A stretch of DNA of 64,000 nt from an uncultured Pseudomonadales bacterium (GCA_947503335.1 CANNCY010000001.1:946845-1010844), one strand, 5' to 3'. Shown: positions 14,449-61,900, numbered from the stretch's first letter. The notes: a model not told the origin generated them from the sequence alone. Translations and numbers: made by a program.

Positions 14449-14450
14449 AT

Positions 14451-14554
14451 GTACGAAACCTGTAACTTTCGTACACCTTACCAAGCAGGTGAACGAAAGT
14501 CCATTAAATTACATTCGTACATGAACGAAATTTTATGCCAAAATTCGTTCACAT
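14451..14554. promoter_or_regulatory. res-like site: three dyads built on (G)TACGAA / TGAACGAA
   Basis: gtacgaaa-N8-tttcgtac at 14451-14474, gtgaacgaaagt...acattcgtac at 14489-14520, tgaacgaaatt-N-aaattcgttca at 14521-14554. All lie immediately upstream of the resolvase. Confidence 0.55.
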
Positions 14555-38209: not shown

Positions 38210-38790
<581 letters not shown>

Positions 38791-42420: not shown

Positions 42421-43152
42421 ATGCTTACATACAACCCTTATGAAAAGATTGCACACGAATACATAGAAAAGAGAAAGATCGCAGCGAAGTCACTTTACAA
42501 TGACGTCATTAATGACCCAGCCATCTTGCGAGCTCTTAGCGAGTTAGATGTCATAGGCCCATCGCTTGATGTAGGTTGCGGGCAAGGCAGCGTGACTGCG
42601 CATATGCCACCCAAGCGATATGGCATTGATCCGTCGCCCACGATGATTGAAAGCGCAAAGAGTAATGCCTTAGCGGACTACGAAGCAGACTTTAAAGTGG
42701 CTTTTGCCGAGAACATTCCTTTTACCGACGGCTCATTCAGCACTATCGTAAGCTCTCTAGCGCTGCATTACTCGCCGAATATCGACGAATGCTTCACTGA
42801 GTTTGCGCGCGCTTTGCGTAAAAATGGCCAACTGGTCTTTACCATACACCACCCGCATCAAACCCAGGCTATTGATATTGACAACAAAAGCGTAACCACT
42901 AAAAAGCTATATGGTAATGGCGAGCGCTATAGGTTTCAGATCGATGAATTTGAGCCACTGTGGGCCCACCATTATTCAAAGAGCTATCTAGAAAACCGTC
43001 TGCTAGCTAATGGCTTCGCAAACATTGAAGTGCGAGACGTGGCGCCTGATAAGAGTCTCTATACAAACTTAAGCTGTAATTTAAAAGAACAGATTATGCA
43101 ATGCATCGCTACTCCGCCTTTCGTGTTGATCACCGCGCTTAAGGCACATTAA
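42421..43152 (+). CDS. Class I SAM-dependent methyltransferase
   Basis: 243 aa. Motif I LDVGCGQG and a later FSTIVSSLALHY. Confidence 0.8.
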   Translation: MLTYNPYEKIAHEYIEKRKIAAKSLYNDVINDPAILRALSELDVIGPSLDVGCGQGSVTAHMPPKRYGIDPSPTMIESAKSNALADYEADFKVAFAENIPFTDGSFSTIVSSLALHYSPNIDECFTEFARALRKNGQLVFTIHHPHQTQAIDIDNKSVTTKKLYGNGERYRFQIDEFEPLWAHHYSKSYLENRLLANGFANIEVRDVAPDKSLYTNLSCNLKEQIMQCIATPPFVLITALKAH

Positions 43153-45185
43153 CAACTTTCTGACACACGCGTCACTACGTATTTGTCGTAAGCCGCCCGC
43201 ATAATGGTCGGCATAGCATGCAAATAATGCCGTACACTAACCTGTGGGCTAACGTGCCCGATCTGTTGGCTGATTAGATCGAAGTCTGTTGGCAACACGG
43301 TTTTGCCACAACCTCGGTCTAAAATGGCTTTGAACTCTTTTTCAGCAGGGTCGTTTCTAAAGCACTTTATATAAGAATGAGTCATTTTATCTCGCATTCC
43401 AAGTCGATATTCCGCCCATCTTAGATAGCACGTTGTAACGTACAAGTGGCGTAAGCTATGCGTACAGAAACGCTCGCCATAAGCATTCTTTAACGCACGA
43501 TTAACTGTATGCGCCAAAACAGATCGAGATACTCCTAGCTCTTGGTAGTCGAGAAACCGCTTTGAACGTATGGCTAGATTCCATTCATCACCCTCTACTC
43601 TATATCGATAATGCTGGACAATAATATCCAAGGCTGCTGATGGGCAGCTTGCTGAAAGTGCAATTCGTCTTTTACCGGCGTCAGTCTTAGAATCCGTGAT
43701 TGAAACGTACACAGCACTGTCGTCGAAAATAAAATCACCAACTCTTAGGTCATATATTTCTTGGTGGCGTAGTCCGCCAAACGCGGCAAGCACAATGACT
43801 AATGCCACTAGTACTGACTGATCGGTACCTTCTTGAAGATTGGTCTCTATTAACTCAAGTACACTACCATTAGAAACCAGGTTCGTGCGCGGGTTGAAAA
43901 TTTCGTCACAGGTAAAAACTCTATCTACGCTAGGTAAATAATCTCTCTCAACACAAAAACGAAGAAAAATATTTAGGTGCACCTTGTTTGCATGGGCCAA
44001 TGGTTCTTCCGAGAAAACTTCATACTCGGCGACCATTTCCTCAAAATAATCAAAATCAATATCATCGACCGGTAGCTCGTCAAGATCACACTCGAGTAGC
44101 TTCATTAATGACGATAGATACTTTATCGACGTTTCCAAATTTATAGTTTTTTCTTCAATTAAAAATGATCTAATCCATCGTAGTAAAATGCTCTGTAAGG
44201 TGACACCAATACCGTTACTCTCAATCTTGACAATCGCATCGCCTAAACAGGTTTCGATATTGGCGTAGTCTTCTCTAGACAGTACGCCAGATGTTTGCTT
44301 AAGACATTGTTTTAGATACGACCTAACTAAAGCCACGCAAGCCTTTGCGTTAATCATTGTTCGCTCAGCGGACCTCTCAACCGTCATAGAAGACTGCCGA
44401 ATACAGTCTTCACCAATTGCGTGCTGGCTTACCGGGTTTCCCTCACTCTCATCTATATCATTAAAGCCATAGAACTCACTGCTCTCTATACCTCGCAGTC
44501 GATCGCTGCCCGAAAATGCTACTAAAGGCGGCACACCCAAAGAAACCAAATAACTTGGAAGAGCTGCTAGATGACTGGATAGTAGTTTCGTGCGGCGGCA
44601 CGAGCTTTTCGCAACGCGATTAAGAGATGTTTCGATTTCACCCCACTTAGGCTCATCATCCTGACTACCAATGTACGCAAACAAATCGCCATCTTGATGA
44701 TCAAACGAATAAATTCTGCCACACGCAAGGCGCAGATAGCCTTCGCAGCTATATGCAGCCTCCCCCTGGATTACCTTCTCAGCTACAGCCTCAAGAGAGT
44801 TCCTCCTCAGACCGTTTATTAGCGACAAGCGATAGAAGGCGCAGGAGTAGCGTTCAATACGATCACTTGAGTCCGCCAGCTTTAATACAGCGTGGTGGAA
44901 TGCCACACAGTCATCTAGAACGTATGGTTTTATACCTTTAAAAGCTGACTCTCTGGATCGCTTGTTAATTGGAACCGTCATCATGCATACGATATCGCCA
45001 CTCTCTGACAGCTTTGATACCAATCGATGCATTTGAGTGCGTAATGATGAGGAGTTTAAAAAATAGCGTCTAGATATCTCCTCTACTAAACCATCAAAGA
45101 ATGAGCCTGTTACGATTCGAGCAGACTCGATCCTTACCCTTGCTTCTTTAATAGCGCTATTGTTTCTGAGCTTTAAATCACCCAT
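43149..45185 (-). CDS. Large tyrosine recombinase (C-terminal catalytic domain)
   Basis: 678 aa. GGLRHQE (R), SKTDAGKRR (K), HSLRHLY (H-x-x-R), IGHVS (H), VRHYLH (Y). The roughly 430-aa N-terminal region is unassigned. Confidence 0.8.
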   Translation of the reverse strand: MGDLKLRNNSAIKEARVRIESARIVTGSFFDGLVEEISRRYFLNSSSLRTQMHRLVSKLSESGDIVCMMTVPINKRSRESAFKGIKPYVLDDCVAFHHAVLKLADSSDRIERYSCAFYRLSLINGLRRNSLEAVAEKVIQGEAAYSCEGYLRLACGRIYSFDHQDGDLFAYIGSQDDEPKWGEIETSLNRVAKSSCRRTKLLSSHLAALPSYLVSLGVPPLVAFSGSDRLRGIESSEFYGFNDIDESEGNPVSQHAIGEDCIRQSSMTVERSAERTMINAKACVALVRSYLKQCLKQTSGVLSREDYANIETCLGDAIVKIESNGIGVTLQSILLRWIRSFLIEEKTINLETSIKYLSSLMKLLECDLDELPVDDIDFDYFEEMVAEYEVFSEEPLAHANKVHLNIFLRFCVERDYLPSVDRVFTCDEIFNPRTNLVSNGSVLELIETNLQEGTDQSVLVALVIVLAAFGGLRHQEIYDLRVGDFIFDDSAVYVSITDSKTDAGKRRIALSASCPSAALDIIVQHYRYRVEGDEWNLAIRSKRFLDYQELGVSRSVLAHTVNRALKNAYGERFCTHSLRHLYVTTCYLRWAEYRLGMRDKMTHSYIKCFRNDPAEKEFKAILDRGCGKTVLPTDFDLISQQIGHVSPQVSVRHYLHAMPTIMRAAYDKYVVTRVSESC

Positions 45186-47092
45186 TAAGTCCCCCTCTTC
45201 GAATTAGGGCCACTATTGATTGCAACAACTCGTACTGAGGCAGAACTATTAATATCGCTGAAGGATCGATACCCTGTGCTATGCTGCAGTGCGGCGCGAC
45301 ATAACTCTCCCGGCTTATTCGAAAGAGTCTTAGCCGCTTCTTTTCTGAGAAAATTTCTGGGTGTCAGCGGCTTAATATCGTGCTTCTCAAGCTCTTTCTC
45401 GAAGCTAGCATGATCCATTAGTCGAAAGCGAAATTGCTTGCAATCACCAATGGCTATTCTGGGCGCTAGATTTTCTTGATCTGGAATTCTCAAGCGTTTC
45501 ATAAGCGCTGTTTGTTCTAGGAGTAAGCCTACAGCAAATGGAGATATGCTCATTTCGAACTCGCCGGTATAGGTAGCGCTAGCTTTTTGGCGCACCCTCA
45601 CTATATCGTTACCCAGATATTCAATGTAGCTTTGGGCACCGAAGGGCCTTAACCCTAGCTCGAAGCTGATATTAAAGTAGAAGTAAAGCTGGGTGCTGTT
45701 GAATTCTTCTAGCGGCGTACACCAAGTACCTTGAAGATTGGCAATCTTGTCGCGAAGATAATTGATTTCAACTCGGGAATTCGGCAAAAAGTGTAGTCGA
45801 GTTCTTTCTACTCTTGTCAGTCTTGCTCCTGTACGTCTAGAGACGAAGCTACCCGAGATATCATGTTGTTCCAGCCATTTACACCATGTATCTATAGAGC
45901 GCTGAAGCGACTCAGTTTTCACCTCGATATAGTGAGCAGCCGCCCTTAGGTCAGCCCTGATCTCGCCGTTTAGATAATCGACCGAAATAGAATCCCCATT
46001 GGCTACTCGCATATGGTACCTAATCGAATTTAGGAGTCTTCCTAGCGTTACCTTGAGACCGAGATTCTTACTAATACGCGCAAGTAGCTGCTCTACCAAT
46101 TTGAGATCTTTAGCGTTTAATATGACAAGGGGCTTGATTAAAGTCGCATCGGAAGCCAACTCAACCCATACGATTTCTGACCCAGTCACCTCATCATCAT
46201 GAATGAGAACCGCATATTTAATGGCCCCTTCATCAGTCATATATGGGCCATATAGCTTTTTATTTCGTCGTAAGGAAATTCCTAGAAAAAACATCCACGA
46301 TAGTGCTGGTATTAAGTTTGAGCTCGAAGCCTCTAGGTAACTCGCAACCCGTGATAGCTCCGTTCCAGTTAGCATTCGGGGGTTGAATATACTAGGAGCA
46401 GTTCTTCGCCATTTTTTCGCCTTTCTTTTTCTTGCTACAACTCGTCGCCCTAGCGGGCTACTTACATAATGTTTTTTACTGTGATCGTCTGCATCTTCAT
46501 GTTTCGAAATTATATCGATGCGACGCAAGTCGCCAATAAACAATTCGCGTGCAGTTGATAGTTGAGTCTTAGAAGATTTTTTACTGGCAGCCCCTGTTGA
46601 CGCTTTACTCACGACGGTGCGCGATCGCTGCCTGCAGCCAACGTAGACCTCTTGAGATCTAACTCGATACCCCGACATGTGCTCGAAAAGCTGACAGCAA
46701 GGCATGCCTTTGCCGTTGGTGATTCGATAATTCCTCTGGTAGTTACACATAACTCGCCGACAAGCATCGGCAGCGGTCTCATCTTTACGCATTCGATTGT
46801 CAAGATTAAGGAAAGCCTTAAAAAACTCTTTACTATGCGTCGTGGCAAATGCAAGTTCGTAAGTAGCATGCCCTACGCCGCACAGCCAAGCCTTGTAGAA
46901 AAAGGTTACCCACCGCTGCTGGGCGGAAATTACGGGATCTTCATCGCTGCGATAGTCATCTAGAGGCAAAAAACGCTCAATCCACGTAGGACGATGAGTA
47001 TTTCCATCATAACCTTGTACGTCCTCATTTAAACGCTTGAAATTTGAATAAACCATCATCGCCCCACTACTTGAATATCTCGATAAATGCAT
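45185..47092 (-). CDS. Divergent tyrosine-recombinase-fold protein
   Basis: 635 aa. ELGLRP, TPRNFLRKE and LQHSTGYRSF sit at the spacing expected for R / (H)xxR / H..Y boxes, but are degenerate. The stop/start abuts the downstream recombinase. Confidence 0.5.
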   Translation of the reverse strand: MHLSRYSSSGAMMVYSNFKRLNEDVQGYDGNTHRPTWIERFLPLDDYRSDEDPVISAQQRWVTFFYKAWLCGVGHATYELAFATTHSKEFFKAFLNLDNRMRKDETAADACRRVMCNYQRNYRITNGKGMPCCQLFEHMSGYRVRSQEVYVGCRQRSRTVVSKASTGAASKKSSKTQLSTARELFIGDLRRIDIISKHEDADDHSKKHYVSSPLGRRVVARKRKAKKWRRTAPSIFNPRMLTGTELSRVASYLEASSSNLIPALSWMFFLGISLRRNKKLYGPYMTDEGAIKYAVLIHDDEVTGSEIVWVELASDATLIKPLVILNAKDLKLVEQLLARISKNLGLKVTLGRLLNSIRYHMRVANGDSISVDYLNGEIRADLRAAAHYIEVKTESLQRSIDTWCKWLEQHDISGSFVSRRTGARLTRVERTRLHFLPNSRVEINYLRDKIANLQGTWCTPLEEFNSTQLYFYFNISFELGLRPFGAQSYIEYLGNDIVRVRQKASATYTGEFEMSISPFAVGLLLEQTALMKRLRIPDQENLAPRIAIGDCKQFRFRLMDHASFEKELEKHDIKPLTPRNFLRKEAAKTLSNKPGELCRAALQHSTGYRSFSDINSSASVRVVAINSGPNSKRGT

Positions 47093-47624
47093 CTAGGTAG
47101 CGAATAAACGTATTATTAGAAACGTTGGTTTCACCATAGAGCCTCATAAAAAATGATTTATAACGCGACCGTCGCCGAGTTGTTGTATCTTCTTCGATTA
47201 GGTATTCCGGAGCTTCTTTAAATAGATGCCAGGAACTTCTCACTTGTTCAATAAAGTCGCTCAAGCCAAAAACCGAGAAGTGAGCTTCGATCGTAAGAAG
47301 TGATTGAAGTGCCAATGGATCGATTTCGTCTCGTACAATGTAGGCCTCGATTTGCTTGGGATAACCTCTCGAATATAGCCTCGAAACTCTTCGTTCAGAC
47401 GATACGAGCTTATAGCATGTTTCGTCTTGACGAATAACGACGGGGATAGAAGTCGATACTACTTCATATTGATTCTGGGTTATCCGCTCCCTAGGCTTGG
47501 CCTTTAGATCGAAAATCTGCTCGACTAGAATTAGCTCTCGACTAACATTAACGAAACTTCCATTTATTAGTTTTAGCTTAAGAACTGTTTGTGGTTTTTT
47601 GCGTGAAGCCATCTTAGCTCCCAT
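47067..47624 (-). CDS. ParB/Srx-like N-terminal domain protein
   Basis: 185 aa. IPVVIRQDETCYKLVSSERRVSRLYSRGYPKQIEAYIVRDE parallels the ParB box I.V......Y.LV.GERR..A.....I.A.IV. Confidence 0.5.
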   Translation of the reverse strand: MGAKMASRKKPQTVLKLKLINGSFVNVSRELILVEQIFDLKAKPRERITQNQYEVVSTSIPVVIRQDETCYKLVSSERRVSRLYSRGYPKQIEAYIVRDEIDPLALQSLLTIEAHFSVFGLSDFIEQVRSSWHLFKEAPEYLIEEDTTTRRRSRYKSFFMRLYGETNVSNNTFIRYLDAFIEIFK

Positions 47625-47966
47625 ACTATTTCGATGAAATTAGCTTCGGAGAAAAGAGCCGGTCGAGCAACAGTTAGGACTGGCATCTTAAATGCCATTT
47701 TGCGAAATCAGGAGGTTATGAAACCCACTTTCCCTTAGGAGATGCTGAAAACAGACACATAATCATCTGAAATATATAAAGAAACTTAGATCTCGTAAGA
47801 TTTATTTCAGTAAAAAATCTAGGAGAGAGACAAGAGATAGCCCATCTAACCTTTATGTGACCCAGACCGCAAAAAATCAATTAAACACTTAGGTCAACTT
47901 TATTCTACGGAAAGTGATGAGCTAGACAGGCTGACATAAGACTAATGAATTATTACTAGATAAGAC

Positions 47967-48167
47967 TTATCGCGAAAGCTCAAAAAGATCCCCAACCTCA
48001 CACTCCAAGAAGACGCACAGCTTCTCGATCACATCAAAATCGATACGCGTAGACTTCTCTTTATAAAGATTGGTAATGGTGACTCGACTAAGCCCTGTGG
48101 CCCTAGAGACCTCAGTGATGTTTACTTTTCTCGCACCCATTAGCGTTGATAGATGACACTTGATCAT
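47967..48167 (-). CDS. Cro/CI-type HTH regulator
   Basis: 66 aa. ITEVSRATGLSRVTITNLYK. Confidence 0.75.
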   Translation of the reverse strand: MIKCHLSTLMGARKVNITEVSRATGLSRVTITNLYKEKSTRIDFDVIEKLCVFLECEVGDLFELSR

Positions 48168-48337: not shown

Positions 48338-48484
48338 ATGAAACAAGCAACGAGCACTGTAAACGCCAAGCAACTAAAGGGTCCTCGTAACCGTATTAAG
48401 TTATCTGTTATGGGCGAGTTTCAGGCCGACGACACCGTTATCGACTTTCTTGCTGCTGAGTACCTAGCATGGTTGAACGAGTAG
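48338..48484 (+). CDS. Small ORF (48 aa) overlapping the recombinase start; possible accessory or directionality factor
   Basis: I translated this ORF myself; it is not in the supplied track. RBS acggagg lies 6 nt upstream. It overlaps the 48469 ATG by 16 nt. Confidence 0.35.
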   Translation: MKQATSTVNAKQLKGPRNRIKLSVMGEFQADDTVIDFLAAEYLAWLNE

Positions 48485-50004
48485 CACTCTACCTTCGATC
48501 TTCTAAAGATCGGCACGATGTATCAATTGATGCGCAACAACGCGAGCTCTCAGAGTTCGTTACGCGTCAAGGTGACATCATCGTGCGAACCTACGAAGAC
48601 AAGGTAGAAAGCGCCAAGACTGACGATCGCCCTGGGTTTCAGTCGATGATCTCAGACGTGCAACGCCCTGATTGCGACTTTAAGCGCATCTACTGCTATG
48701 ACACTAGTCGCTTTAGTCGTCGCCAACATCATGCCCAGATGTACAAGCACTTGCTTAAAAAGAAAGGCGTAGAACTCTTATTCTTAAAGCTGCCGAAGAC
48801 TGATTCGATTCTTGACCCAGTGGTTGAGTCGCTCATGGAAATCTTCGATGAGTTTCACTCGCAAAAGTCTAAGATGGATGGCCTTCGTGGCATGCGCGAA
48901 AACGTAAAACAAGGCTGGCGAGCTGGCGGCCGCGCCGTATACGGCTATAAACTAGACAAACAAGTCGTAGGTACTCGCGAAGGCTTACCTGTGACCAAAA
49001 GCAAGCTTGTTCCCTGCCCCAAGTCGTTCGACAAGATGAAGGCATATCTAAAGGCACGCGCTACAGGCCGCAGTCGGGGCGAGTTGATACAAGACCTTAA
49101 TCTAGAAGTGAGCAACTCGGTACTAGGTTACGCAGAGCGTAATGTCGAAACCTATGCAGGCCATACCGTTTGGAACAAAACCAACGAAAAGCTCGATGGC
49201 GAGTACCTTGGCGGCAAAAAATATCGCGATCGTAGCGAATGGGTAATCCACCGAAATACCCATGAGGCTATGATTACAGACGATGAAGCTGCTCGCATAT
49301 CTGAAATCCAGAAGCGCCATCAGCGGTCTAGAGCACGCACCACAAAATCAGGCTATCTGTTGGCTAACGTGCTCAAGTGCACTTGCGGCGCCAATTACCA
49401 AGGCGATTCTGGCTACTACCGATGCGGCAAACGCTGTGGCGCAAAGGGCATCAAGAAAGAAACCATTGAGCAGGTGGTAATAGACTACGTGATCAAAGAC
49501 TTTTTGAAGCCCCAAGACTTTGTGCAACTTAAGAAATCGATTAAGAAGCTAATTGCTGAACGCAGTAACAATCAGCAAAGTAAGTCTGCACGCCTTCAAG
49601 AGGCCATCAAAGAAATCGACGGCGAGATCAACGATCTCGTTAAGCTAGTCGCGCAAATGAAACAGCCTCGCCCTATTCTAGAGCGAATAGATAGTCTTGA
49701 AACTGATCGATCTGCGGTGCAAAAAGAGCTCGACGCTCTACCTACAGAGGTGAACCCCGAGTTTATTGAACTAAGCGACAGAAAGGTTCGCGAGTTTATT
49801 ACTAGATATATCGATGATTTCACCCAAGGTGACTACCTCAAAAAGAAATCGCTCGTGCGCTCTTTGATCGAGGTAGCCTTGTTCGATGGCCATGAAGTAA
49901 CCATAACGCCCACGCATCGAGCTGTTACTGGCTATACGGGTACAGAGAATGAGACTAGCCCAGATACCGCGATTATAGGTGTCCGTAAAACACCTAAGAA
50001 CTAA
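48469..50004 (+). CDS. Large serine recombinase
   Basis: 511 aa. ALYLRSS catalytic Ser region, DTSRFSRR, a recombinase domain, zinc ribbon CTCGANYQGDSGYYRCGKRC, and a coiled-coil. Confidence 0.9.
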   Translation: MVERVALYLRSSKDRHDVSIDAQQRELSEFVTRQGDIIVRTYEDKVESAKTDDRPGFQSMISDVQRPDCDFKRIYCYDTSRFSRRQHHAQMYKHLLKKKGVELLFLKLPKTDSILDPVVESLMEIFDEFHSQKSKMDGLRGMRENVKQGWRAGGRAVYGYKLDKQVVGTREGLPVTKSKLVPCPKSFDKMKAYLKARATGRSRGELIQDLNLEVSNSVLGYAERNVETYAGHTVWNKTNEKLDGEYLGGKKYRDRSEWVIHRNTHEAMITDDEAARISEIQKRHQRSRARTTKSGYLLANVLKCTCGANYQGDSGYYRCGKRCGAKGIKKETIEQVVIDYVIKDFLKPQDFVQLKKSIKKLIAERSNNQQSKSARLQEAIKEIDGEINDLVKLVAQMKQPRPILERIDSLETDRSAVQKELDALPTEVNPEFIELSDRKVREFITRYIDDFTQGDYLKKKSLVRSLIEVALFDGHEVTITPTHRAVTGYTGTENETSPDTAIIGVRKTPKN

Positions 50005-50022
50005 TAATACTAATTATTAGTT
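49999..50022. repeat. Dyad ACTAATAAT-ACTA-ATTATTAGT overlapping the recombinase stop
   Basis: Perfect 9-10-bp arms. Related sites lie at 47941-47959 and 50144-50167. Confidence 0.5.
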
Positions 50023-50199
50023 CAACAACAATACTATCCCCATCTACTTAAAAACGCTGAACTATTGGTTATAAAGAGCTAAATCTAACAATTCTATAAC
50101 CACATAGTTGCGCTTCAGTCACTACTAGACTATATTGCAAATGAATTATTAGTCACTAATAATACTAAAACCTTTAACAACTACGAACAAGAGGCAAAG

Positions 50200-50884: not shown

Positions 50885-52153
50885 TCAACAGACAAAGCCA
50901 TCGATAACATTTGTAGTCTCGATAGATTCTAACACTGAAGTGATGTTTACATCTTCTTGCTCGTGAGTATAGATTTTCAGGTTTTGATCGACTTCAAGCC
51001 ATTTACGTCTCAGTTGTGACAGTGGAGCCCCCTTAGGAAATCCGTCCAACTGATCAACGATCCACTCACATGTAAGTGCACCCTCTTTTGTTACTACTGA
51101 CCCGGAGAAACAGTACTTTTCTTCAAGGTCAAAACCGACAGGTACAATATTCGCACTAACCTCCCGAGCCAAATACGTCAGGATTCTAAACCCACCTTCA
51201 TCAAAATCACCCCAATGATAAATAGTACAGCTATCCTGATAGCGCGTAGCGCCCTGCTTGAGTAAACGAAGTACTTCACGAGAAGGAAATCCACCGGTGT
51301 ATACGATCTGTAACCTACGCTCGTTATCAAGCTCGCAAAGTTGATGAAAGGGCGTGAAATTCTCGACAAGCACGATGGGCCGCGCATCATCAAACATTAG
51401 GTTGCAGCCACGTGTGGGTAACCCAAGATAGATCGCTGGCCCATGCGCTCCAATTTCTCCATGTATGTTGTAGTCCACGCCCGCGCTGATCATAATTGGC
51501 TGCGGCTTTGCAAGTACACCCAGATGTAGCAGTAGCTCCTCGGGATTGAAGTCGCCCTCGACATGTACAAGCGAAGCAGCCGCCCAGGCGGTAAGCTCCA
51601 GATGTCGCTCAACCCACTTAGAATCCGATGTGCAGCGCGCACTCAATACACGCATTTCAATAGCTTCATTCAATGATGCGATTGCGATAGCCACCCTCAA
51701 TGCGTTGATAAGATCGTTGCACTGGCGTAGCGGCACTCCGCAGACGGATCTGCGTTTCTCGTAGGTCGATAGAATCTCCGACACTAACGAGCGCGGTAAC
51801 GCCAACTCGTCCAAGTGTTTCGTCACCGTCTCATAATATCGGCTTAGGGGGACGTTATCACCATGGTCATGATTGGTGGCTGCCAGACAGTAACTCACGA
51901 GCGCATGCCAGTTACTTGGCTCATAAGCGACGGCACTTAGCTCTAAATCGTGACTCATGCCAACACGCTTTCGTTCCACCGTCACCAAATCTTCTGCTTC
52001 GAGCCGTTCAATGAACGCATCAAAAGCTTGCGATTGCTCGCGTGATGACCAGTACTGCGCAAAAGACCGTTTATTGACTTTGATCAGCGTCTCCGCCGGG
52101 CAGCTTGGGGTATCAACCTTCTGCAAAAACTTAGTAATCAGCACGTTACGCAT
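50885..52153 (-). CDS. jetD: Wadjet JetD (Toprim-domain nuclease subunit)
   Basis: 422 aa. LVENFTPF and YHWGDFDEGGFRI Toprim motifs. Last gene of the jetABCD order. Confidence 0.85.
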   Translation of the reverse strand: MRNVLITKFLQKVDTPSCPAETLIKVNKRSFAQYWSSREQSQAFDAFIERLEAEDLVTVERKRVGMSHDLELSAVAYEPSNWHALVSYCLAATNHDHGDNVPLSRYYETVTKHLDELALPRSLVSEILSTYEKRRSVCGVPLRQCNDLINALRVAIAIASLNEAIEMRVLSARCTSDSKWVERHLELTAWAAASLVHVEGDFNPEELLLHLGVLAKPQPIMISAGVDYNIHGEIGAHGPAIYLGLPTRGCNLMFDDARPIVLVENFTPFHQLCELDNERRLQIVYTGGFPSREVLRLLKQGATRYQDSCTIYHWGDFDEGGFRILTYLAREVSANIVPVGFDLEEKYCFSGSVVTKEGALTCEWIVDQLDGFPKGAPLSQLRRKWLEVDQNLKIYTHEQEDVNITSVLESIETTNVIDGFVC

Positions 52154-55100
52154 TTACAGCTTCCCCCTCCTCAAGAAACGCATCAATCAGTTCGCTGTGA
52201 ATCAGCGGATTATCTGACTCTAACAAATCTCGCGTGCGATGGGTGGGCTCTTTGGATAAAACCTCGATGGTGTCACCGGAGCGAATAATTGAAACAATCT
52301 GGTCGCAATAGCCGCCAATCTTAGTTTCAGAATCAGAGGGCGCAGCGATGAGGCACTGCAAGCCGATGCTTGCAAAAAACGCTAAGCTTGCTGAACTGTT
52401 CGCGGCGTCGACACCTTCAAACGCCTCGTCAAAAAGTGAAATACCGATACCACCCCTAGGTTCGCCCGTAGCACTTGTGCGTATTTTATAGGTATTCATC
52501 AGTGCAGCACCAAGCACCACATACAACGGTGTTTGACGCTCACCCACACTCGCTACGCCCCGTGTACGTGACACGCTCATTTTGGTTTCGCGCTCCAAGT
52601 TACGATAGCGCAGGTCATAGGTGTAGTACTGTCTGTAGTCACCTAGATGCGCTAACGATTCATCCTCAATCACCGCCTGAATAATGGCGAGCGCTTCGTC
52701 ATCTTCTTTGGTTGTGTCATCGAACATGCCGCCATAATCATGCTCGCCCACGTTTGACGCACGCTCTACATAGTCAAGTAATTGCTTGGTTTGAACGTCC
52801 TCTTTGCGCGCATGGTGAAAGCTGTAGGTATTACCGTTGAAGACCAACTTGTTCAACTGCGCGTTGAGTGCGCTTAAATGGGTACGCAAGTCGGCAAAGT
52901 TTTCAGACAACTGCTGCACGACTTTGGTCTTAAAATGCGTCAACATTGAGTTCGCTGCTTCTCGGGCCTGAGTCGAAAACCGCGCCAAATCCGTTTCCAC
53001 AAGCTTCGTATGAATGCTCACCATCTCAGTGTTCAGCTCTGTTAATGGGCCTGATTGCAGGTTGCTGTTCAGCGTGTAGTCATAGGTCTTTGAGAAGTAC
53101 GACACCGACTCAATAATCCCACTCCTTATCTTTTCGAACTTTTCTTGACGCTCATGCATGCGTCGCTCGATCGTAGTCAGGTCAGTTTCACCGGGATCAA
53201 CCTTTTCATGGGTAAGTAGCGCTTCATATTCCGCAGCATCGTACGCATCATTCGCTTCGAGCGCGCTGCGCTCCGTAATTGCGCTTTCTAGCTGAACCTG
53301 ACTGCGCTCAAGATTTTCACTGGCATTCTTTAGCTCGTTGCGCATGCGTGCCAGATCACCGACACCGTTTTCTTTTTCAGCTTCAAGTGAGTCGAGCGCC
53401 TGGGTGATTTTCTGGTATCTATCCTCTTGCGCCTCACTTGAGCCTTCCAACACAGAGCGCTTTTCACTCGTTGCATCAATCGCAGTATCCAGTTCAGCAA
53501 GCGTTGCTTCAATCGCGCTGATGTCGATCAGTCCGAGCTGTGTAATGGCCACCTGAAGATGATGTATCTGCTCGGTAACTTTCTCAGTGTCGCGTTCCAA
53601 TTCTCGAAGCTCAGCTTTAACTAGTTTGAGCTGATCGGCCAATGCTTCAGCGCGCTTTTTACGGGCTTCAAGACCGACAATCTCAACCGAAGGCTTGCTT
53701 GCGATCACGCGTTCATAGATGCAATGCAGGCTCGGAGTTTCCGCGTCTTCGCGTGTCGCTGCGACCACGCCGGCGATTACGCCATTATATTCATCAAAAC
53801 CCGACTTCATGTAGGGTGTTTCTGTTGCGCCGTCACCCGATGAAGGCAACAGTAGCCGCACGCCAAGGAGGTTTTTCTCGGCAAGCAAAGATTGTGCAGC
53901 CACCACTTGCCCACTCGGAACAACCACGACATCGCGCAAGTCGTAAAGCGCTGTTTCAAGCTGTGTTGTTGAGTGAAGGTCATCATTTAGGGCATCGGGC
54001 AGCGGCATGGCTCGAATACCCTGTTGTTCGCAGATCGCGATAAAGTTCTGCACCTCTTTAGAGCGCTCGATACGCCCAGCCGATAACGCCTGATGGGATT
54101 GGGTGAGCTGACCAGCCTCTGTCCGAAGTTTTGTCTGTTTTTCTAGAAGCCCATGTTGTGTCGCATGAGATTCACTCAGGCAAGTGGTGAGCGCATCAAT
54201 AAGTTGCTCAAGACCCGCAGACGATGGCGATTGCGCCAATGATGCTCGATAAGGATTCACAACCGAAAATAGTCGCTCTGTGTCACCTGTCTCTAACAAG
54301 GCATCTAATACCGTCACTGGCCTAATCAGCTGTTGTTTCGCTTGATCCTTATCGCTGTGAAGGCGTCTTAATTCGTTATCAAGTCGCTGCAGTTCGTTTG
54401 CAGCATTTCCGGCGCCGGCGCGAATAAGACTCGCTTGCTCTTCGCGAGCCTCTGATATACGCACCTTGTAATCGGCGTCCGCCTGTTCTGCTTCATCGAT
54501 GCTTTCATCTAGGCGCTCTATCTTGGCTTCAATGCCTTCAATCTTTAGCTCGCCTTGGGTAACAATGCCCTCATACTTAGCCCACTTAAGCGCCTCGATG
54601 ATGCGCGTCTGCTTGAGGGCTTTTTTGAGTTTAGTGAGAATGGCTGCCACATCATCCGATTTTTCTTTTGTGTGCGCGATGCGCTGCTCAATGTCTTTGA
54701 AAAGTTGATGATCGTTTCGCAAGGTCTTGAGATCAATGTTACGCTCAGGGAGTACGTAGCTATGAATGAAGTCGTAAAGATTTTGCTCATGCTTAAACGA
54801 CAGCGTACGCTTTAGAAGCCTCAGAATAGCCAAGGGATCAAATTTATCGCGCCTGCCTTTACCTGAGAGCTGCTCAGCAAATACATCACGATACTCGCTC
54901 GCCATAGCAAAGACATCAACTGGAATGGTCGCTTCATCTTTAAACAGCTTCCATGTTTTGGCTTGGTTTTCTTTGACTAGAAAGTCCGAGGCCTGCAACC
55001 CTGCGTGCGCAATAAAAGGAGCGCGTTTGGTGTCGCTAGAGCCAGCCTTTGCGTGCACGTAAACACCCGTAGTGATCATAGCGCCGCTTGGCTTTTCCCA

Positions 55101-55403
55101 CACAAGTGCAATCCATGTGTTGCTCTCCGTGCGATCAAAGAGCATGCGGTCATCATTACCTGCCTTTACCCCGAGCGCATACGCCTCCAATGTACGCGAC
55201 TCGCTCTTGCTGGCATCGCTCTGCGCGTTGTAAGACAGCTTGGTTTTGTCTGCGCCTGCAAGTACGGTCTGGATTGCATCAAGCAACGAACTTTTGCCCG
55301 AGCCGTTTGCTCCCTTCAAGAGCACAACGTCACCCTTGATCGCGAGGTCGATGTTGTCAAATAGGTACCAGTTGACCAGTACAATACGCCGAAGTTTAAT
55401 CAT
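52146..55403 (-). CDS. jetC: Wadjet JetC (SMC-like ATPase)
   Basis: 1085 aa. Walker A GANGSGKSS, a long coiled-coil middle, signature-like SVGERQ, and Walker B LFDEAFEGVD. Confidence 0.9.
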   Translation of the reverse strand: MIKLRRIVLVNWYLFDNIDLAIKGDVVLLKGANGSGKSSLLDAIQTVLAGADKTKLSYNAQSDASKSESRTLEAYALGVKAGNDDRMLFDRTESNTWIALVWEKPSGAMITTGVYVHAKAGSSDTKRAPFIAHAGLQASDFLVKENQAKTWKLFKDEATIPVDVFAMASEYRDVFAEQLSGKGRRDKFDPLAILRLLKRTLSFKHEQNLYDFIHSYVLPERNIDLKTLRNDHQLFKDIEQRIAHTKEKSDDVAAILTKLKKALKQTRIIEALKWAKYEGIVTQGELKIEGIEAKIERLDESIDEAEQADADYKVRISEAREEQASLIRAGAGNAANELQRLDNELRRLHSDKDQAKQQLIRPVTVLDALLETGDTERLFSVVNPYRASLAQSPSSAGLEQLIDALTTCLSESHATQHGLLEKQTKLRTEAGQLTQSHQALSAGRIERSKEVQNFIAICEQQGIRAMPLPDALNDDLHSTTQLETALYDLRDVVVVPSGQVVAAQSLLAEKNLLGVRLLLPSSGDGATETPYMKSGFDEYNGVIAGVVAATREDAETPSLHCIYERVIASKPSVEIVGLEARKKRAEALADQLKLVKAELRELERDTEKVTEQIHHLQVAITQLGLIDISAIEATLAELDTAIDATSEKRSVLEGSSEAQEDRYQKITQALDSLEAEKENGVGDLARMRNELKNASENLERSQVQLESAITERSALEANDAYDAAEYEALLTHEKVDPGETDLTTIERRMHERQEKFEKIRSGIIESVSYFSKTYDYTLNSNLQSGPLTELNTEMVSIHTKLVETDLARFSTQAREAANSMLTHFKTKVVQQLSENFADLRTHLSALNAQLNKLVFNGNTYSFHHARKEDVQTKQLLDYVERASNVGEHDYGGMFDDTTKEDDEALAIIQAVIEDESLAHLGDYRQYYTYDLRYRNLERETKMSVSRTRGVASVGERQTPLYVVLGAALMNTYKIRTSATGEPRGGIGISLFDEAFEGVDAANSSASLAFFASIGLQCLIAAPSDSETKIGGYCDQIVSIIRSGDTIEVLSKEPTHRTRDLLESDNPLIHSELIDAFLEEGEAVNA

Positions 55404-56055
55404 GGGCCGCCTCCTTGCTGTCTATCACCGTAGTGGCTTCTACTGGATCATGTGTATGGGTTTCGCTTGCCGCAAACTTTGCAAGGTGCAACATGTAGGC
55501 ATCATCAATCACATACTCAATCGAGGGCAGTACGCTAATGAAGTGCATCTTAGATTGCTCGCACACTTCTTTGGATAAGCGAATAAGCCCAATGTCCGCC
55601 AATTGCTCAAGCGCGTCATTCATTTCGCGCTTCGATGGCAACTCGGTTTTCGTCAATTGAGAATAGGTGTCGCATACAAGACCTGGGGGCGGCTCAGATA
55701 TGCCGGCATCAGTGCAACCCTTGAGTGACTCTGAATGATGCAGCTGACGAAGAATAAGTGCGAGAATGCTTGTAAGCTTTGGCAGCGTTCGCGCCTTAAA
55801 GCGTTTAGGCATGATACCGACCAAACCAAAATGCTCATCCACAACAAGCTGGTACCCCATCAAGTGATAGAGCACGGTAAGTTCTTGCTGAAATTGCACC
55901 GCAAGGTTAAACAGCTGTCGTTTACCTGCATCGGCCCGGAGAAACCATTGACGACGAATCAGCTCAATATTTAGATTCTGCAAGTCATCAATGTCTTGGT
56001 TGTTTGCTTCTAGCGCGCTAGAAAATGCTTGCTCAATGGCTCTAAGCGGTGTCAT
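55396..56055 (-). CDS. jetB: Wadjet JetB (MksE-like)
   Basis: 219 aa. Called from size and position between jetA and jetC, with overlapping stops and starts. Confidence 0.75.
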   Translation of the reverse strand: MTPLRAIEQAFSSALEANNQDIDDLQNLNIELIRRQWFLRADAGKRQLFNLAVQFQQELTVLYHLMGYQLVVDEHFGLVGIMPKRFKARTLPKLTSILALILRQLHHSESLKGCTDAGISEPPPGLVCDTYSQLTKTELPSKREMNDALEQLADIGLIRLSKEVCEQSKMHFISVLPSIEYVIDDAYMLHLAKFAASETHTHDPVEATTVIDSKEAAHD

Positions 56056-57391
56056 ACAGTGCCTCGTTCAGTTCAAAGCGTAATGTAGGGCAGGTCAAAT
56101 AGTCGTTACGTGTCTCACCACCCGTCAGTTCGACGCGGAAATATTTCAATACGGGTGCAAGTGGGTGCGTGCTGCTCGCATGGTAGAGGTCGAGTAACTG
56201 AGAGAACGCGACATAGTCCTCAATGGTATCGATCGCTATGCCATTGGTATCACGTATGCCTTGCTTGTACCATTGCAGCAGCGTCTCCAATAATCGCGCT
56301 GGGTCATTCGCCCGCGTCTCTAAATACTTTGACATAAGCTTGTCCATCGCGATGGCGCGTGGATCGGCGGGTGCTCGCTCAACACGGGTGACGCTCGCCG
56401 GCGGCTTAGCGGTGCGCGGCTCGTAAAGCGCATTGACGGCGATATGGCGCGCAGGCGCCCAAGTCGTCGTGTCGGTTTGCGGCATATCAGCGATCAGCTC
56501 CAACGCGTCAACGACAGCATCTTCCGTTGCGCTGGTATTACGTGAGGCATAGTGGATAATTTCATTGATGCGACTGGTGATGGTTTGCGTCCAATCTTCA
56601 AATGCCTGTATGAGTGGCTTAATAAGTCGAATGTCGTGTTCGATACGTTTAATAAGCGCCTTAACCTCACACGCCTCTTTAAATGCAGCATCTGCCTGAA
56701 TGTCGATAGTCCAGGTGAGATCCAATATTTGGCGAATCCGCCCATACGGGTAACCCTTCCCCGATGAGGCTTGTTTGAAGTTTGGGAAAAGATCTTGAAT
56801 ATAACGCTCAAAAAACAATTCAACCTGTTCGGGAGCCGACGCAATATCGTTCACTTGTTGCGCAAGCTCCTGTGACGCTGCCACAAGGTTACCTAATCGA
56901 CGCACGTAGCTCTTTGCACGCACCGACGCCTCGTTTAAGGCATTGGCTCGGGTTTCGACAGGCCGTTCCGCGTCGTTAGCTCGGTCTAGCCAGACGATGA
57001 CCGCTTCGCACTCGGCCTCAGAATCAACCTCACCTACTTCCATGGTCGCAAGTGTCGTGTACAGTGATCCAGCTGCTAGCGGCATAAACACAGTCTTGCG
57101 ATAGCCCTTAGCATTCGCCTCTTTGAGCCAGCCGACCTCTTTTAATCTGTCATAGACCTTGGCTGCCTCTTCGGATAGGTCGTCGTCACTCATTCCTTCC
57201 TCGACCATCAAAAACTGCTTGATGGTCAGTTTGATGTCGGACGGCTCAGGCTGCGTGAATCCATCACTCATGTCCCCCTGCACGAGTTCAGCATGCAGAT
57301 GATCGAGCACAGAGATATACAGATCCCGCTTCATCGAGCACAGTGGGCGCAAAAGGTCTGTAGGACAGTTGCGCAAAGAAAGCTTATCCAT
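56042..57391 (-). CDS. jetA: Wadjet JetA (kleisin-like, MksF-like)
   Basis: 449 aa. First gene of the four-gene operon. Called from size and order. Confidence 0.75.
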   Translation of the reverse strand: MDKLSLRNCPTDLLRPLCSMKRDLYISVLDHLHAELVQGDMSDGFTQPEPSDIKLTIKQFLMVEEGMSDDDLSEEAAKVYDRLKEVGWLKEANAKGYRKTVFMPLAAGSLYTTLATMEVGEVDSEAECEAVIVWLDRANDAERPVETRANALNEASVRAKSYVRRLGNLVAASQELAQQVNDIASAPEQVELFFERYIQDLFPNFKQASSGKGYPYGRIRQILDLTWTIDIQADAAFKEACEVKALIKRIEHDIRLIKPLIQAFEDWTQTITSRINEIIHYASRNTSATEDAVVDALELIADMPQTDTTTWAPARHIAVNALYEPRTAKPPASVTRVERAPADPRAIAMDKLMSKYLETRANDPARLLETLLQWYKQGIRDTNGIAIDTIEDYVAFSQLLDLYHASSTHPLAPVLKYFRVELTGGETRNDYLTCPTLRFELNEALYDTA

Positions 57392-57434
57392 AAGTTAAAT
57401 ACAGCAAGTCGTCAAAGGTGACTATTATTAAGTT

Positions 57435-57449
57435 ATCTTTGCAAAAGAT
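57435..57449. promoter_or_regulatory. Candidate operator ATCTTT-GCA-AAAGAT in the jetA / WYL divergent intergenic region
   Basis: Perfect 15-bp palindrome, 44 nt from the jetA start. Confidence 0.35.
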
Positions 57450-57552
57450 CAAGCACTGCTGTTATTATGCAGCTGATAGTTGGCTTGCCCTGTTAGCGCA
57501 CTTCGCTTGGGCACCCATTGACCAAAGACTGAGCACAAAATACATAGATACC

Positions 57553-58356
57553 ATGGCTAAGCACGCATTTAACTTACAAGGTTGGATTGCCAAGACAGTG
57601 TTTTGGCAGCGCAGAATCAATGCAAAAGGCATCTCTGCAGACCTCGGTATCTCGCTTGCTCCGGCAACGCGTGAGCTTAAACGCTTTGTTACAGAATTTA
57701 ACGACGGGCTTGAGGAACACGCCAAAGGCCATTGGTATGTATACCCTCGGCCAGACTTTGACCCGTCACCACTGTACGACCCATTAAACGACCTCTGCTC
57801 GCCAGCAATGGTTACCTTCGAGCGCTCATTTCAGTCGCCTGTAGGTGAGCCAACTATTATCGCGCGCCCATCAATCCCCGTCTTAAGTCGTATGATTCAT
57901 GCGATTGTCAATGCACAGGACCTGTTGATCACGTACCAAAGCCTAGGCAAGGCGGCATCGCATCGAAGAGTAACCCCTAAAAGCGTCACAGGGTCACTGG
58001 GTCGCGTGTACTTGAGCGCATACTGCCATACAAGAAAGGATTGGCGCGCATTCAACCTTGATCGTATTTCGGCGATTGAAATAAAGCAGGCGACCAGCCA
58101 AAGCCTGCCACCCGAGCCAAAGGTAACGCTGTCGATTCAGGCGAACCCTCATCTTGGCGGTGAAGAGCAAAGTCTGCTTGAACACACACTCACTCAATCG
58201 CGCTATGTCATGGATACAACAAAGGCATTCATGTTTAATACGGGCAACGGCATCAACCCGACTATAGCTACACGCTCAATCGAATCCCAGTTTCCTAGTT
58301 TATACCCATACGTAGTTCACGACATGTGCGAGTCCGCTGACAATAGAAAGACTTAA
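57553..58356 (+). CDS. WYL-domain transcriptional regulator (BrxR/CapW-like architecture)
   Basis: N-terminal HTH ISADLGISLAPATRELKRFV and WYL-like core RVYLSAYCHTRKDWRAFNLDRISAIE. Start chosen at MAKHAF (57553); the ORF track starts at 57418. Confidence 0.7.
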   Translation: MAKHAFNLQGWIAKTVFWQRRINAKGISADLGISLAPATRELKRFVTEFNDGLEEHAKGHWYVYPRPDFDPSPLYDPLNDLCSPAMVTFERSFQSPVGEPTIIARPSIPVLSRMIHAIVNAQDLLITYQSLGKAASHRRVTPKSVTGSLGRVYLSAYCHTRKDWRAFNLDRISAIEIKQATSQSLPPEPKVTLSIQANPHLGGEEQSLLEHTLTQSRYVMDTTKAFMFNTGNGINPTIATRSIESQFPSLYPYVVHDMCESADNRKT

Positions 58357-58975: not shown

Positions 58976-61900
58976 ATGACTGACACTAAGCATTATAAAT
59001 CAGCTGCATCTCAGGTCCATAAGGGAACAGGCCATAACATTGTCGTTTATGAAAATCATAATGCAATAACACCTTCAACACTAAGTAGTAGTCTCAGCGA
59101 TATACTCCTGGATGTACTACACCGCAAGCACAGAGCAGTAAAAGAAAAAGTTGAGATCCTTGAAAAGTCAGGAAAACTTGATCCACAATCAACATACTTT
59201 CTTACAGCAATTAAACTGCTTGTAGATTTTGTTGAAGGGAAAATAGCTGATGATGCCCTAAGACAGCTAGATGCTATTGTGCAATCCGACCCTACTTCTG
59301 ACCTGCTGGACATTACTCAAGCAGCTAAAATAACCCTTTTTTGTAAACAGGGTGATCTGCTTAGTGCAAAAGCATTATTTGAATCAATTAAGTCCCCAGG
59401 GCTATATTCGCGTAGTGCCTTTTATGAATATTTACAAAACCCTAATGAGTTAAGTGCTATTTATGAAAGCTCTACTCATAACCTTGGTGAAGCAGAACTT
59501 TGTGCAATTATTAGAAGGAGCTTAACAACGAACAAATTCGCTTTGGCAGCAGGCATATCAGATCTTTTGGTGAAACGATACCCATCGGTTAACAGTCGTT
59601 TCCTGGAGGCTATTTCAAATATTAATGACTTGCTTCAAGGGCGAAATATCCACTTTTGGAATATTTCAGCGACTCAGAAAAAAGAACTATTTGAGTGGGC
59701 TGATAAGCTTTCTCTATTGCTCGATGAAAGTGAAGGCCTCGATGCTCGCGTAGTAGAGCTTTCCGGTCATGTATGTCATTTTTGTCATGGTGAACATCAG
59801 GGCTTGCTGGAGTCTTGCTGGAGGTATATATCTGCACTTGATAGACATGCGCCGCTCGCTGCTATGTCTATTCGTAGTGTTTTTGAAGCTAACCCAAACC
59901 ATGGTGATGGCTTAATCGGCGAGATGACTAAAGCGCAAAATGATAAGGCTTACCGAAAGGAAATAATAAATAATTTAAGGAACTCTAAAGATCTATCAGC
60001 AGAAGACGTTGTTATTCTGAGTCGATACGGCGATTCCGAGTCTATACAGGATTGGATAGAGAAAGGCGGACATATCGTCTCAGATGATGATTTTGAGAAT
60101 GACTACTCAATGCTTGAATTGGTTTGTTTTTCTTATAATAAATCACCGGAAGTTGACAAACAGATAGAAGCCCTAGGGAAAGCCTTTCTCGAAAAACACG
60201 AGGAAAAGTTTAGTGAAATTAATCCGCTTCGGCTCGTCGACCTTGCGAGCAAGCTGATTGATGCAAACCAAGCGTTTTTGGCTGCTCAGCTTTTAAGACC
60301 ACACATCCCCGAAGCAGATATCTGGCCTTCTGAACTTGTTCGGTGCTATTTGAACTCACTATTGGCTAGCGGTCAATATAAGACCCTCGACGAAGTGATT
60401 AAGCGAATCCCTCTTCACGAAAGAGATAGCTTTGTGTGGCACGTTGTAGCCACAAAGCTTGCATACCAAGGCGAAATACCAAATGCTATCAATACCTTAA
60501 AGAAGTCGCTTAAAATTTTTCCCTACTCTATCACTATACATAATTACCTTTTATATCTTTATGTTCGTCATGAATATCCCGAAAGGGAATTAAGCGACTT
60601 TCTTTCAGGCATCCCAGAAAAAATTCTCGAAAAAGAGTCTCCTCAGGCATTAAATATACTTTTTGCTATAGCCAAGTATCATGACTTTTCTGCGGCCGAA
60701 CGAATAATATTGAACTGGTATGTTGCAAATCCAATTACATCAGCAGTTTCGATTACCGACTTTTATGGAAGACTATTAGTTGATAAAACTATGCACCCTA
60801 CGCTTTCTCTTTCTTCGGGTAGCTGTCTTGGTGCATATCAATATACCAGAAATAACCACCATGTAACTCAGCTAGTTATTGCCGCTCATCTAGACACTGA
60901 GCATAATTCATTACTCAAAGAGGATACTCCATTAGCTAAAATTTTGATTGCTGGTGAAGATCAAATGCTTGGTACGAATAGTATAGAGAATATCAAACAG
61001 TTATCACCATTAGCGGCTGCCTTCTCACTTGCAGCTGAAATAAGGCAGGCAAATAATCATGGGTTCGACCCTTTTATGCAGCTTGGTGGGCACAATACGA
61101 CGGTAGAAGAGAGTGTTAATCAGCTAATCAAAGTACTTCAATCTCAGGACAATCGAGAAGATCAAATTTCCGACCCTAATATACCGCTATATATGAAGGG
61201 GCACAAAATCGGCAATGGGTGTCCAGTTCAGAAAGCTTATGACCACTTGACATCAAAAATTTCTCACAAAGAACCATTACCTAATTTTGGCACGGATAAG
61301 CCGGAGAGCGTAATTCTCGATATTTATGGAGTGCTACTCATTAGCTGTAATGGACTTTCATCGCCAATATCAGAGAGCGGTATCACCCTACATATAACTT
61401 ATGAAACCAAAAAGCTAATTTATAAATGGCTAGAGCAAGTTGATGATGAGCATGGCCGCTTCAATGTAGGCTCCGATGGCAAGATTTGGATGGAGTCATC
61501 AGAGGACATCCAACGAAAAACCAAAGCGATAAGAGATGGCATCAATGTCATCATGGACAATGCCAAAGTTCTTTCTCCAAACTTGGCTGATATGCCGCCT
61601 CAGCTGTCGTCAATTCATGACTCTGTTGATATATCAGTATTTTCAAGTATGACGCTGTCTCACGCAAACGACATACCCTGGTTATGTATTGATCCGATAT
61701 TTGCGAGCTTATGGCATACAACTAATAATAAGGTTATCAAGGCCAACAACTTTCTTCTGGCAATAGCGAAAAATGCGGATTTTGAAGATAAAAGAGAAGG
61801 TATATATCTTCATGTTGCTGCCGGAATGCCAAGATGGGTCGGTTTTGATGAACTTGTGGAGCTAAGTAAATCTGATAATGAGTACGCGCCATACTTTTTG

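Follow-up and report, generated by a model that had tools for sequence, protein, structure and literature searches.

At the locus described here, three consecutive minus-strand genes, hereafter the trio, lie within a 64-kb stretch of DNA from an uncultured Pseudomonadales bacterium (GCA_947503335.1 CANNCY010000001.1:946845-1010844). This whole stretch is called the window and all coordinates refer to it. The first gene of the trio (gene 1, 47067-47624) encodes a small protein, the second (gene 2, 45185-47092) an orphan protein, and the last (gene 3, 43149-45185) a predicted Xer-like tyrosine recombinase of 678 aa. Next to them stand a gene for a small helix-turn-helix (HTH) regulator and a gene for a large serine recombinase (LSR). 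Our leading and still tentative reading is that these genes form a tyrosine-recombinase module of three proteins, conserved but rare and evolving fast, located at the integrase-proximal end of a family of LSR-integrated islands, where it would perform a second DNA transaction.

A first-pass annotation of this DNA had described three minus-strand open reading frames (ORFs) of 185, 635 and 678 aa with overlapping or abutting ends. The ORFs are found at the coordinates given above and the overlap of genes 2 and 3 is real: in the junction, AGAGGGGGACTTAATGG, the stop and start codons have one base in common (TAATG, with AGAGGGGGA ahead of it) and a strong ribosome-binding site precedes them, a classic arrangement for translational coupling. 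The starts of the first two genes, by contrast, are likely to lie further downstream. Gene 1 probably begins at its second ATG (47612), which has a Shine-Dalgarno GGGAG ahead and gives a protein of 181 aa, while gene 2 probably begins at M13 (ATG 47056, or 47059), which is preceded by GGGG, lies ~10 nt past the gene 1 stop and gives 623 aa. The lengths recorded in a public protein collection agree (181 aa for gene 1, P0003; 623 aa for gene 2, P0001). With these later starts, the overlap of genes 1 and 2 gives way to a gap of ~10 nt, so that the operon is tightly packed, with one true overlap and one abutment. Upstream, the 342 bp of non-coding DNA between 47625 and 47966 are presumed to hold the promoter or regulatory region of the trio. 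At the opposite end, gene 3 converges on a class-I S-adenosylmethionine methyltransferase gene (42421-43152, plus strand); their stops share 4 nt, so that neither a terminator nor a recombination site could fit between the two.

Judged by its sequence, gene 3 encodes a genuine, Xer-like and highly unusual tyrosine recombinase. It matches the Pfam family Phage_integrase (PF00589) above the cut-off over residues 455-583 (E=3.6e-7, 30.6 bits; cut-off 27.1) and the PHROG_1 integrase profile over residues 328-606 (E=9e-20, 72.5 bits). The full R-K-HxxR-H-Y signature that had been read from the sequence was borne out between residues 473 and 654, where the catalytic set is complete and in order: R473, K500, H576-x-x-R579, H644 and the predicted nucleophile Y654. 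In an alignment (A1) of gene 3 with the recombinases of three related loci (L006, L008 and L009, described below), these residues as well as H580 are invariant. The relatives score 35-42 bits against PF00589 and 33-44 bits against NCBIfam Xer models whose cut-offs are 330-335. For gene 3 itself, the NCBIfam matches are sub-threshold and point to archaeal XerA and XerS, XerA_Arch being the best (19.9 bits; cut-off 220). When the A1 profile was compared with the PDB, it retrieved XerA (5hxy) at E=3e-5, and also a XerC-like protein, XerH and XerD. Gene 3 is nevertheless not a Xer equivalog, its scores lying below every NCBIfam cut-off and its length being 678 aa against the ~300 aa expected. The proteins of this family carry an N-terminal extension of ~330-400 residues (~330 in gene 3) without a match to anything, as well as a conserved insertion of ~35 aa that separates box II (HxxR) from the His/Tyr motif. 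As a result of this insertion, 64 residues separate R579 from H644. The HxxR-to-His spacing of canonical tyrosine recombinases is a few dozen residues at most. The possibility that gene 3 is a protelomerase was considered and rejected, the catalytic domain being C-terminal and Xer-like.

No match to gene 2 was obtained in Pfam, NCBIfam, PHROGs, PADLOC or the PDB, no integrase domain was reported by Pfam or PHROGs even at E<=10, and an exhaustive phmmer (HMMER) search against 1.84 billion cluster representatives returned only the protein itself. Its relatives were recognized among the middle proteins of the related loci: pairwise BLASTP aligned 125-172 residues of gene 2 with its counterparts in L008 (E=4e-6) and L009 (E=1e-4) at 24-26% identity, the L008 match covering residues 263-431 at 24% identity, and the C-terminus of the L006 protein resembles its L008 and L009 counterparts. 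When the four middle proteins were aligned (A2), F256, G259, T337, R340, S344, H348 and Y376 (numbering of the 623-aa protein) were invariant, in a central block which falls within the most conserved part of the middle gene between L008 and L009. By eye, a box I-like pattern (F..G(L)) can be read in this block, T-x-x-R stands where H-x-x-R would be expected, and a tyrosine follows 36 residues on; none of these features is significant. The corresponding Arg-to-Tyr spacing in Cre and XerD is roughly 32 residues, and thus close.

The claim that gene 2 retains degenerate recombinase boxes found no statistical support. Besides the lack of an integrase match, BLASTP between genes 2 and 3 gave E=0.11, and a custom recombinase hidden Markov model (HMM) scored gene 2 inside the range of shuffled controls; the same model placed the stretch LILFCTGLNPERLKNLKVE of L008 and L009 on box I with a marginal score. 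Comparison of A2 with A1 by hhalign yielded a probability of 0.06%. This test has low power, as A1 also scored below 1% against true recombinases, the IntA and IntB proteins of integrative elements of the strand-biased circularizing type (SEs), and the negative A2-A1 result is therefore uninformative. Searching the PDB with the A2 profile or with the gene 2 sequence retrieved nothing meaningful, and a single-sequence AlphaFold model had a predicted local distance difference test (pLDDT) score of 34, too low to use.

Gene 1 had been assigned a ParB/Srx-like box with SERR in place of GERR as its arginine motif. The SERR is indeed present, at residues 76-79 of the 185-aa ORF, but the box amounts to a single sub-threshold match to the N-terminal ParB-like region of Noc in NCBIfam (E=0.006, 16 bits; cut-off 315), and the motif is not conserved, QPQST or NDPNA taking its place in the relatives. 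No match was found in Pfam (ParBc included), PHROGs, PADLOC or the PDB; the gene 1 family profile retrieved no ParB from the PDB and none by hhalign, and the single-sequence AlphaFold model (pLDDT 43) was again too low to use. The small proteins of L006, L008 and L009 align weakly with gene 1, in a region resembling the ParB N-terminal strand-helix pattern. A ParB-like nature of gene 1 is thus a weak, sub-threshold hint.

The three proteins are extremely rare. When 5.8 billion proteins were searched by word index, each of the three retrieved nothing but itself, and a lookup of encoding contigs for P0002 and P0003 had nothing on record. Tblastn or megablast searches of plasmids and phages gave no match to the trio; viral and metagenome contigs scanned with the recombinase or middle-protein alignments yielded generic integrases only, or nothing; and PADLOC has no model matching any of the three at E<=1. 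No description of this gene set was found in the full-text literature. Across several very large collections, four loci carry the trio.

The other three, distant loci from unrelated bacteria, were discovered through the neighbouring LSR. The LSR (511 aa; 48469-50004, plus strand) contains Resolvase, Recombinase and Zn_ribbon_recom domains and is transcribed divergently from the gene for a Cro/C1-type HTH regulator (66 aa; 47967-48167, minus strand; PF13443 HTH_26, 8e-20), which lies directly upstream of the trio on the same strand. Using the LSR as query in one genome per species, nine loci were retrieved (L003-L011; ~50% identity), mostly from Zetaproteobacteria, with one from a Pseudomonadales metagenome-assembled genome and one labelled Flavobacteriaceae. 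HTH homologues (50-62% identity) occur in L004, L006, L008 and L009, between the LSR and the trio where the latter is present. L006, L008 and L009 each contain a trio of like order and packing, in which successive stops and starts overlap or nearly abut, beside the HTH and LSR homologues. Their small, middle and recombinase proteins measure 226, 774 and 695 aa in L006, 276, 736 and 789 aa in L008, and 303, 732 and 795 aa in L009, and only the third is recognized by Pfam, NCBIfam or PHROGs. Gene 3 is 21-23% identical to these third proteins over 420-470 residues (E=1e-14 to 1e-17). In every known instance (n=4), the trio is therefore found beside the same integrase module.

The position of the LSR within these loci is informative. 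In seven of the nine, a tRNA-Glu gene (UUC/CUC) encoded on the other strand overlaps the 3' end of the LSR gene; in L006, the two are 3.8 kb apart, with other genes filling the interval. Among the loci scanned beyond the tRNA, PdxJ and TrmD follow in L008 and glutamate synthase in L005, with homologues recurring in L003 and L011. Because of this tRNA overlap and of the housekeeping genes beyond it, the LSR appears to mark the outermost border of an integrated element. It is thus probably the element-end integrase, and the element would continue upstream of it to take in the HTH gene and the trio. More broadly, this LSR family implies serine-integrase islands which use a tRNA gene as target. 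The LSR of the window also gave sub-threshold matches to the XisF, CcrA and CcrB models. Past its stop codon, an AT-rich spacer (50005-50199) contains two palindromes, ACTAATTATTAGT at ~50009 and TTATTAGTCACTAATAA at 50146, which have the words TAATACTAA and ATTATTAGT in common and whose motif occurs once in the window. On sequence grounds, they could be an element end, an attachment site or an operator.

Comparison of L008 and L009 showed that the trio is maintained by selection. The ratios of nonsynonymous to synonymous divergence (dN/dS) are 0.31 for the small gene, 0.19 for the middle gene and 0.16 for the recombinase gene; the trio genes therefore encode functional proteins under purifying selection. 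Synonymous divergence (dS) is 0.35-0.72 within the trio, against 2.2-2.4 in the adjoining HTH and LSR genes. Across L008 3600-11600, identity to L009 is a mosaic: the recombinase gene and the middle of the second gene reach 90-97%, and the rest, LSR included, stays at 66-80%. The mosaic and the dS gap indicate that element variants have recombined with one another. In addition, the trio of the window is flipped with respect to the HTH and LSR genes when compared with L006, L008 and L009; in L008 and L009, the recombinase stop lies 2 nt from the HTH stop. The slot of the trio is occupied by an SNF2 helicase in L004, and a TraI_2-like gene takes its place in L010. Owing to the inversion, the discordant dS, the mosaic identity and the helicase in L004, the trio is considered to have a history of its own, independent of that of the LSR.

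The DNA directly 5' of the trio differs between loci. In L008, a tandem array occupies 3013-3660 (73-bp unit, ~7.6 copies, in two blocks); in L009, a 38-bp unit is present in at least three copies at 1-118 and runs into the contig end. The two units are unrelated in sequence, although the loci are otherwise ~81% identical. In contrast, the equivalent 47625-47966 region of the window holds neither tandem repeats nor an ORF of note, and no array was found upstream of the trio in L006. The contigs of L006 and L009 end just upstream of the small gene. Further 5' in L008 (370-2577), beyond the arrays, are genes for a DnaB_C-like ATPase and a UmuD-like S24 peptidase and a fragmented UmuC (IMS) gene, a content typical of mobile elements.

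Regarding the wider window, the trio is located in horizontally acquired DNA. A stretch of higher GC content (44-52%) extends from an IstB fragment at 38.3 kb to a WYL gene at 58.4 kb, with flanking genes at 38-40%. The trio had been linked to a block of ~50% GC. Such a stretch exists, but gene-by-gene composition puts the trio at 41-45% GC, and the 48-52% part corresponds to a Wadjet operon. This operon (50885-57391, minus strand) is complete, with JetD (422 aa), JetC (1085 aa), JetB (219 aa) and JetA (449 aa) in overlapping stops and starts, and is adjoined by a divergent gene for a WYL-domain regulator (57418-58356, plus strand). The proposal that the trio is the mobility engine of this block is unlikely, as the LSR holds the element edge in seven of the nine related loci and the trio is absent from L004. 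By analogy with those loci, the LSR is the candidate integrase. More plausibly, the Wadjet block would be associated with it or have been acquired separately; this block may lie inside the LSR element, like the cargo of L006, or in an adjacent island.

Several other features complete the window. At the left edge of the higher-GC block, an IS21 IstB C-terminal fragment (99 aa; 38278-38577, minus strand; PF01695, 5e-36) stands beside a 31-nt inverted repeat (38612-38779; 87% complementary, 106-nt spacer). To the right of the Wadjet and WYL genes are a 1108-aa protein with the PIN domain of a TPR-GreAB-C-PIN system (58976-62302, plus strand) and a Fic/DOC protein with DUF4172 (62864-63985, minus strand), both at the ~40-45% GC that also marks the flanks of the block. 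The region 15050-37603 is devoted to heavy-metal resistance: Pfam recognizes an outer-membrane efflux protein and a DUF411 protein, CzcD-like transporters, two resistance-nodulation-division efflux systems and a P-type ATPase were identified by eye, and part of the region weakly resembles plasmids of Alteromonas and Pseudoalteromonas in nucleotide sequence, a hint of a marine host akin to Alteromonadales. Finally, four genes at 9156-13860 (minus strand) resemble by eye a Qat cluster, with products of 586 aa (KAP-type P-loop NTPase), 295 aa, 450 aa (QueC-like) and 243 aa (TatD-like), and are followed by a small serine resolvase gene (13879-14484).

Based on these data, a mechanism can be proposed for the trio. 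Gene 3 would be the catalytic subunit, cutting and rejoining DNA through Tyr654. Genes 1 and 2, whose coupled translation would keep their products at a constant ratio to gene 3, would be family-specific DNA-binding or architectural partners which choose the site and control the reaction, possibly within a common complex; these roles are modelled on those of TnpC, Srap and Tfp in other multi-protein tyrosine recombinases. While the LSR at the element edge probably performs integration and excision, the trio would carry out a second, separate reaction. Because of its inverted orientation, discordant dS and absence from L004, this reaction is most likely its own movement or exchange between islands. 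Alternatively, given the Xer-like catalytic domain and the 73-bp and 38-bp arrays of L008 and L009, it could be the resolution or maintenance of an excised circle.

Several points weigh against the module as just described. Only four instances are known, and their linkage to the LSR could reflect the shared ancestry of a few related islands instead of a functional tie. Neither gene 1 nor gene 2 has an assignable fold, so that an accessory role would be by analogy, and the small proteins of the relatives have no pairwise similarity to gene 1, their equivalence resting on position and weak alignment. No tRNA occurs within the window, nor were boundaries of its LSR element found. In the searches for recombination sites, element ends and circular junctions none was identified, and flanking direct or inverted repeats, tRNA-derived repeats and att-like repeats were at chance level.

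Other explanations were weighed against the same observations. The trio could be the engine of a nested site-specific transposon of its own, resembling Tn554, GInt islands or SEs, which excises as a circle and inserts beside the HTH-LSR module. The coupling of a ~620-aa partner to a ~680-aa recombinase, close in size to Tfp (576 aa) and IntB (679 aa), would suit such an element, as would the flipped orientation between loci, the dS discordant with that of the LSR, the absence from L004 and the breaks of the L006 and L009 contigs just upstream of the small gene. This reading is nonetheless rather doubtful: Tn554, SEs and GInts use two catalytic recombinases (PMC10214605, PMC5385486) and the trio a single one, gene 3 is not followed by a small gene of the Srap, TnpC or GinD type, no similarity to SEs was detected, no terminal repeats were found, and the trio is extremely rare and single-copy. 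Moreover, the 2 nt between the recombinase and HTH stops in L008 and L009 leave no space there for an element end or cargo. The resemblance of the gene 3 family to XerA, XerC, XerD and XerH, its best solved or curated matches, suggests instead a module maintaining the excised circular island, in which a Xer-like multimer resolvase would act with a ParB-fold centromere binder and an adaptor. The weak match of gene 1 to the Noc/ParB N-terminus and the tandem arrays, which recall centromere or iteron arrays, are consistent with this proposal. It is, however, unlikely, since no ParA/ParM partner or replication initiator was found nearby, the ParB hint was not reproduced by the family profile or in the PDB and its arginine motif is unconserved, the window and L006 lack the arrays, and ordinary resolvases need neither a 330-aa extension nor a 620-aa partner.

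It is quite unlikely that the trio is cargo, in the form of a defence or regulatory system or of a DNA-inversion switch lodged in a variable slot near the integrase. The slot beside the HTH regulator does hold the SNF2 helicase in L004, the window is rich in defence functions (Wadjet, the PIN-TPR-GreABC protein recognized by Pfam and the Qat-like cluster identified by eye), and the relatives give weak, sub-threshold matches to models of tyrosine-type DNA invertases. Yet PADLOC offers no match, no inverted repeats flank the trio, and site-specific recombination is the only activity that its sequences suggest. The inversion switch as such was rejected, given the lack of flanking inverted repeats and the 2 nt between the recombinase and HTH stops in L008 and L009. 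As for a decaying remnant without current function in this genome, which the singleton status of the three proteins in very large databases and the surrounding debris, including the IS21 IstB fragment, might suggest, it is highly improbable: the three ORFs are intact over 4.5 kb with their coupling signals preserved, all catalytic residues of gene 3 are in place, and related trios are under purifying selection.

The three-protein module at the integrase-proximal end of LSR islands is thus retained as the leading, tentative reading. A bolder version of it, in which the trio would represent a new class of machine, made of a catalytic Xer-like subunit, a large pseudo-recombinase that retains an Arg...Tyr pair and a small DNA-binding protein of ParB fold, and would move or exchange itself between serine-integrase islands, deserves only low confidence. 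If true, islands would harbour two mechanistically different recombination systems with separate jobs. More generally, how multi-protein modules such as Tn554, GInts and SEs mobilize resistance and virulence islands is still poorly understood. The trio would widen the catalogue of such modules, as its subunit make-up differs, two of its proteins have no known relatives and its association with a serine integrase is fixed, and would provide a case of two recombinase types within one island. Its rarity, with four loci, limits the immediate impact.

How the trio relates to known recombination systems can be considered gene by gene and as a whole. The Xer family (XerA 5hxy, XerC/XerD and XerH) comprises the closest solved or curated relatives of gene 3, with which the core-binding and catalytic domains align and the catalytic residues are common. 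Unlike Xer proteins, gene 3 is more than twice as long, has the ~330-aa N-terminal extension and the ~35-aa insertion, and is accompanied by two dedicated partner genes. RIT elements consist of three tandem tyrosine recombinases, each with a recognizable integrase domain, and the trio is not one of them, genes 1 and 2 having no such domain at E<=10. In Tn554, two catalytic recombinases (TnpA and TnpB) are followed by the small TnpC. The trio recalls this three-gene module for site-specific transposition, with its ~630-aa tyrosine recombinase and one small accessory protein, but it has one catalytic recombinase and its small gene comes first; in addition, the hosts of Tn554 are Firmicutes. A different likeness, that of an LSR at an element end together with dedicated recombination genes, is offered by ccrA/ccrB of SCCmec and by XisF of the fdxN element with XisH/XisI. 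There, however, the companions are a second serine recombinase or small directionality factors, and not a tyrosine recombinase with two orphans.

GInts contain three consecutive recombinase-fold genes and ginD, arranged as ginABCD at the island's 5' end, the fold being recognized by InterPro (PMC5385486). Like the trio, they combine several recombinase-related genes, one of them degenerate (GinC), in an operon at the end of a genomic island. The trio, by contrast, has one recognizable recombinase and no fourth gene, and no GInt-type terminal repeats were found. For GInts as for Tn554, the distinction is drawn from composition.

SEs bear the closest resemblance in architecture. Their core, intA-tfp-intB-srap, is translationally coupled, and PSI-BLAST homology to Tfp and Srap has been used as a criterion for them (PMC10214605). 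In this coupled multi-gene operon, the non-catalytic Tfp (at least 550 aa) comes just ahead of the large atypical IntB (~680 aa), and SEs occur in islands of marine Gammaproteobacteria. The element on plasmid pHNAH8I-1, the sole SE representative used here, encodes four proteins of 429, 576, 679 and 140 aa, and genes 2 and 3 resemble its tfp and intB in order and size. No sequence relationship accompanies this resemblance: when the trio was compared with IntA, Tfp, IntB and Srap of pHNAH8I-1 by BLASTP and hhalign, the best match, between the catalytic domain and IntA, had E=0.019. The trio also differs from SEs in lacking an intA-type second catalytic recombinase and srap, in opening with a small gene which is no recombinase, and in its linkage to an LSR, which is absent from SEs. 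Only three genes are present, the gene past gene 3 being the convergent methyltransferase. SEs have defined termini with imperfect inverted repeats and a 6-bp spacer or footprint, and form a circular intermediate; no element ends could be defined around the trio. The difference in composition from Tn554, GInts and SEs that the first-pass annotation had pointed out was thereby confirmed, with a single catalytic recombinase, a small gene in first position and no srap or ginD. Collectively, these comparisons place the trio, as far as its proteins can be compared, outside every named family tested, and the most apt description is a novel version of the multi-protein tyrosine-recombinase module, set apart by its linkage to a serine integrase.

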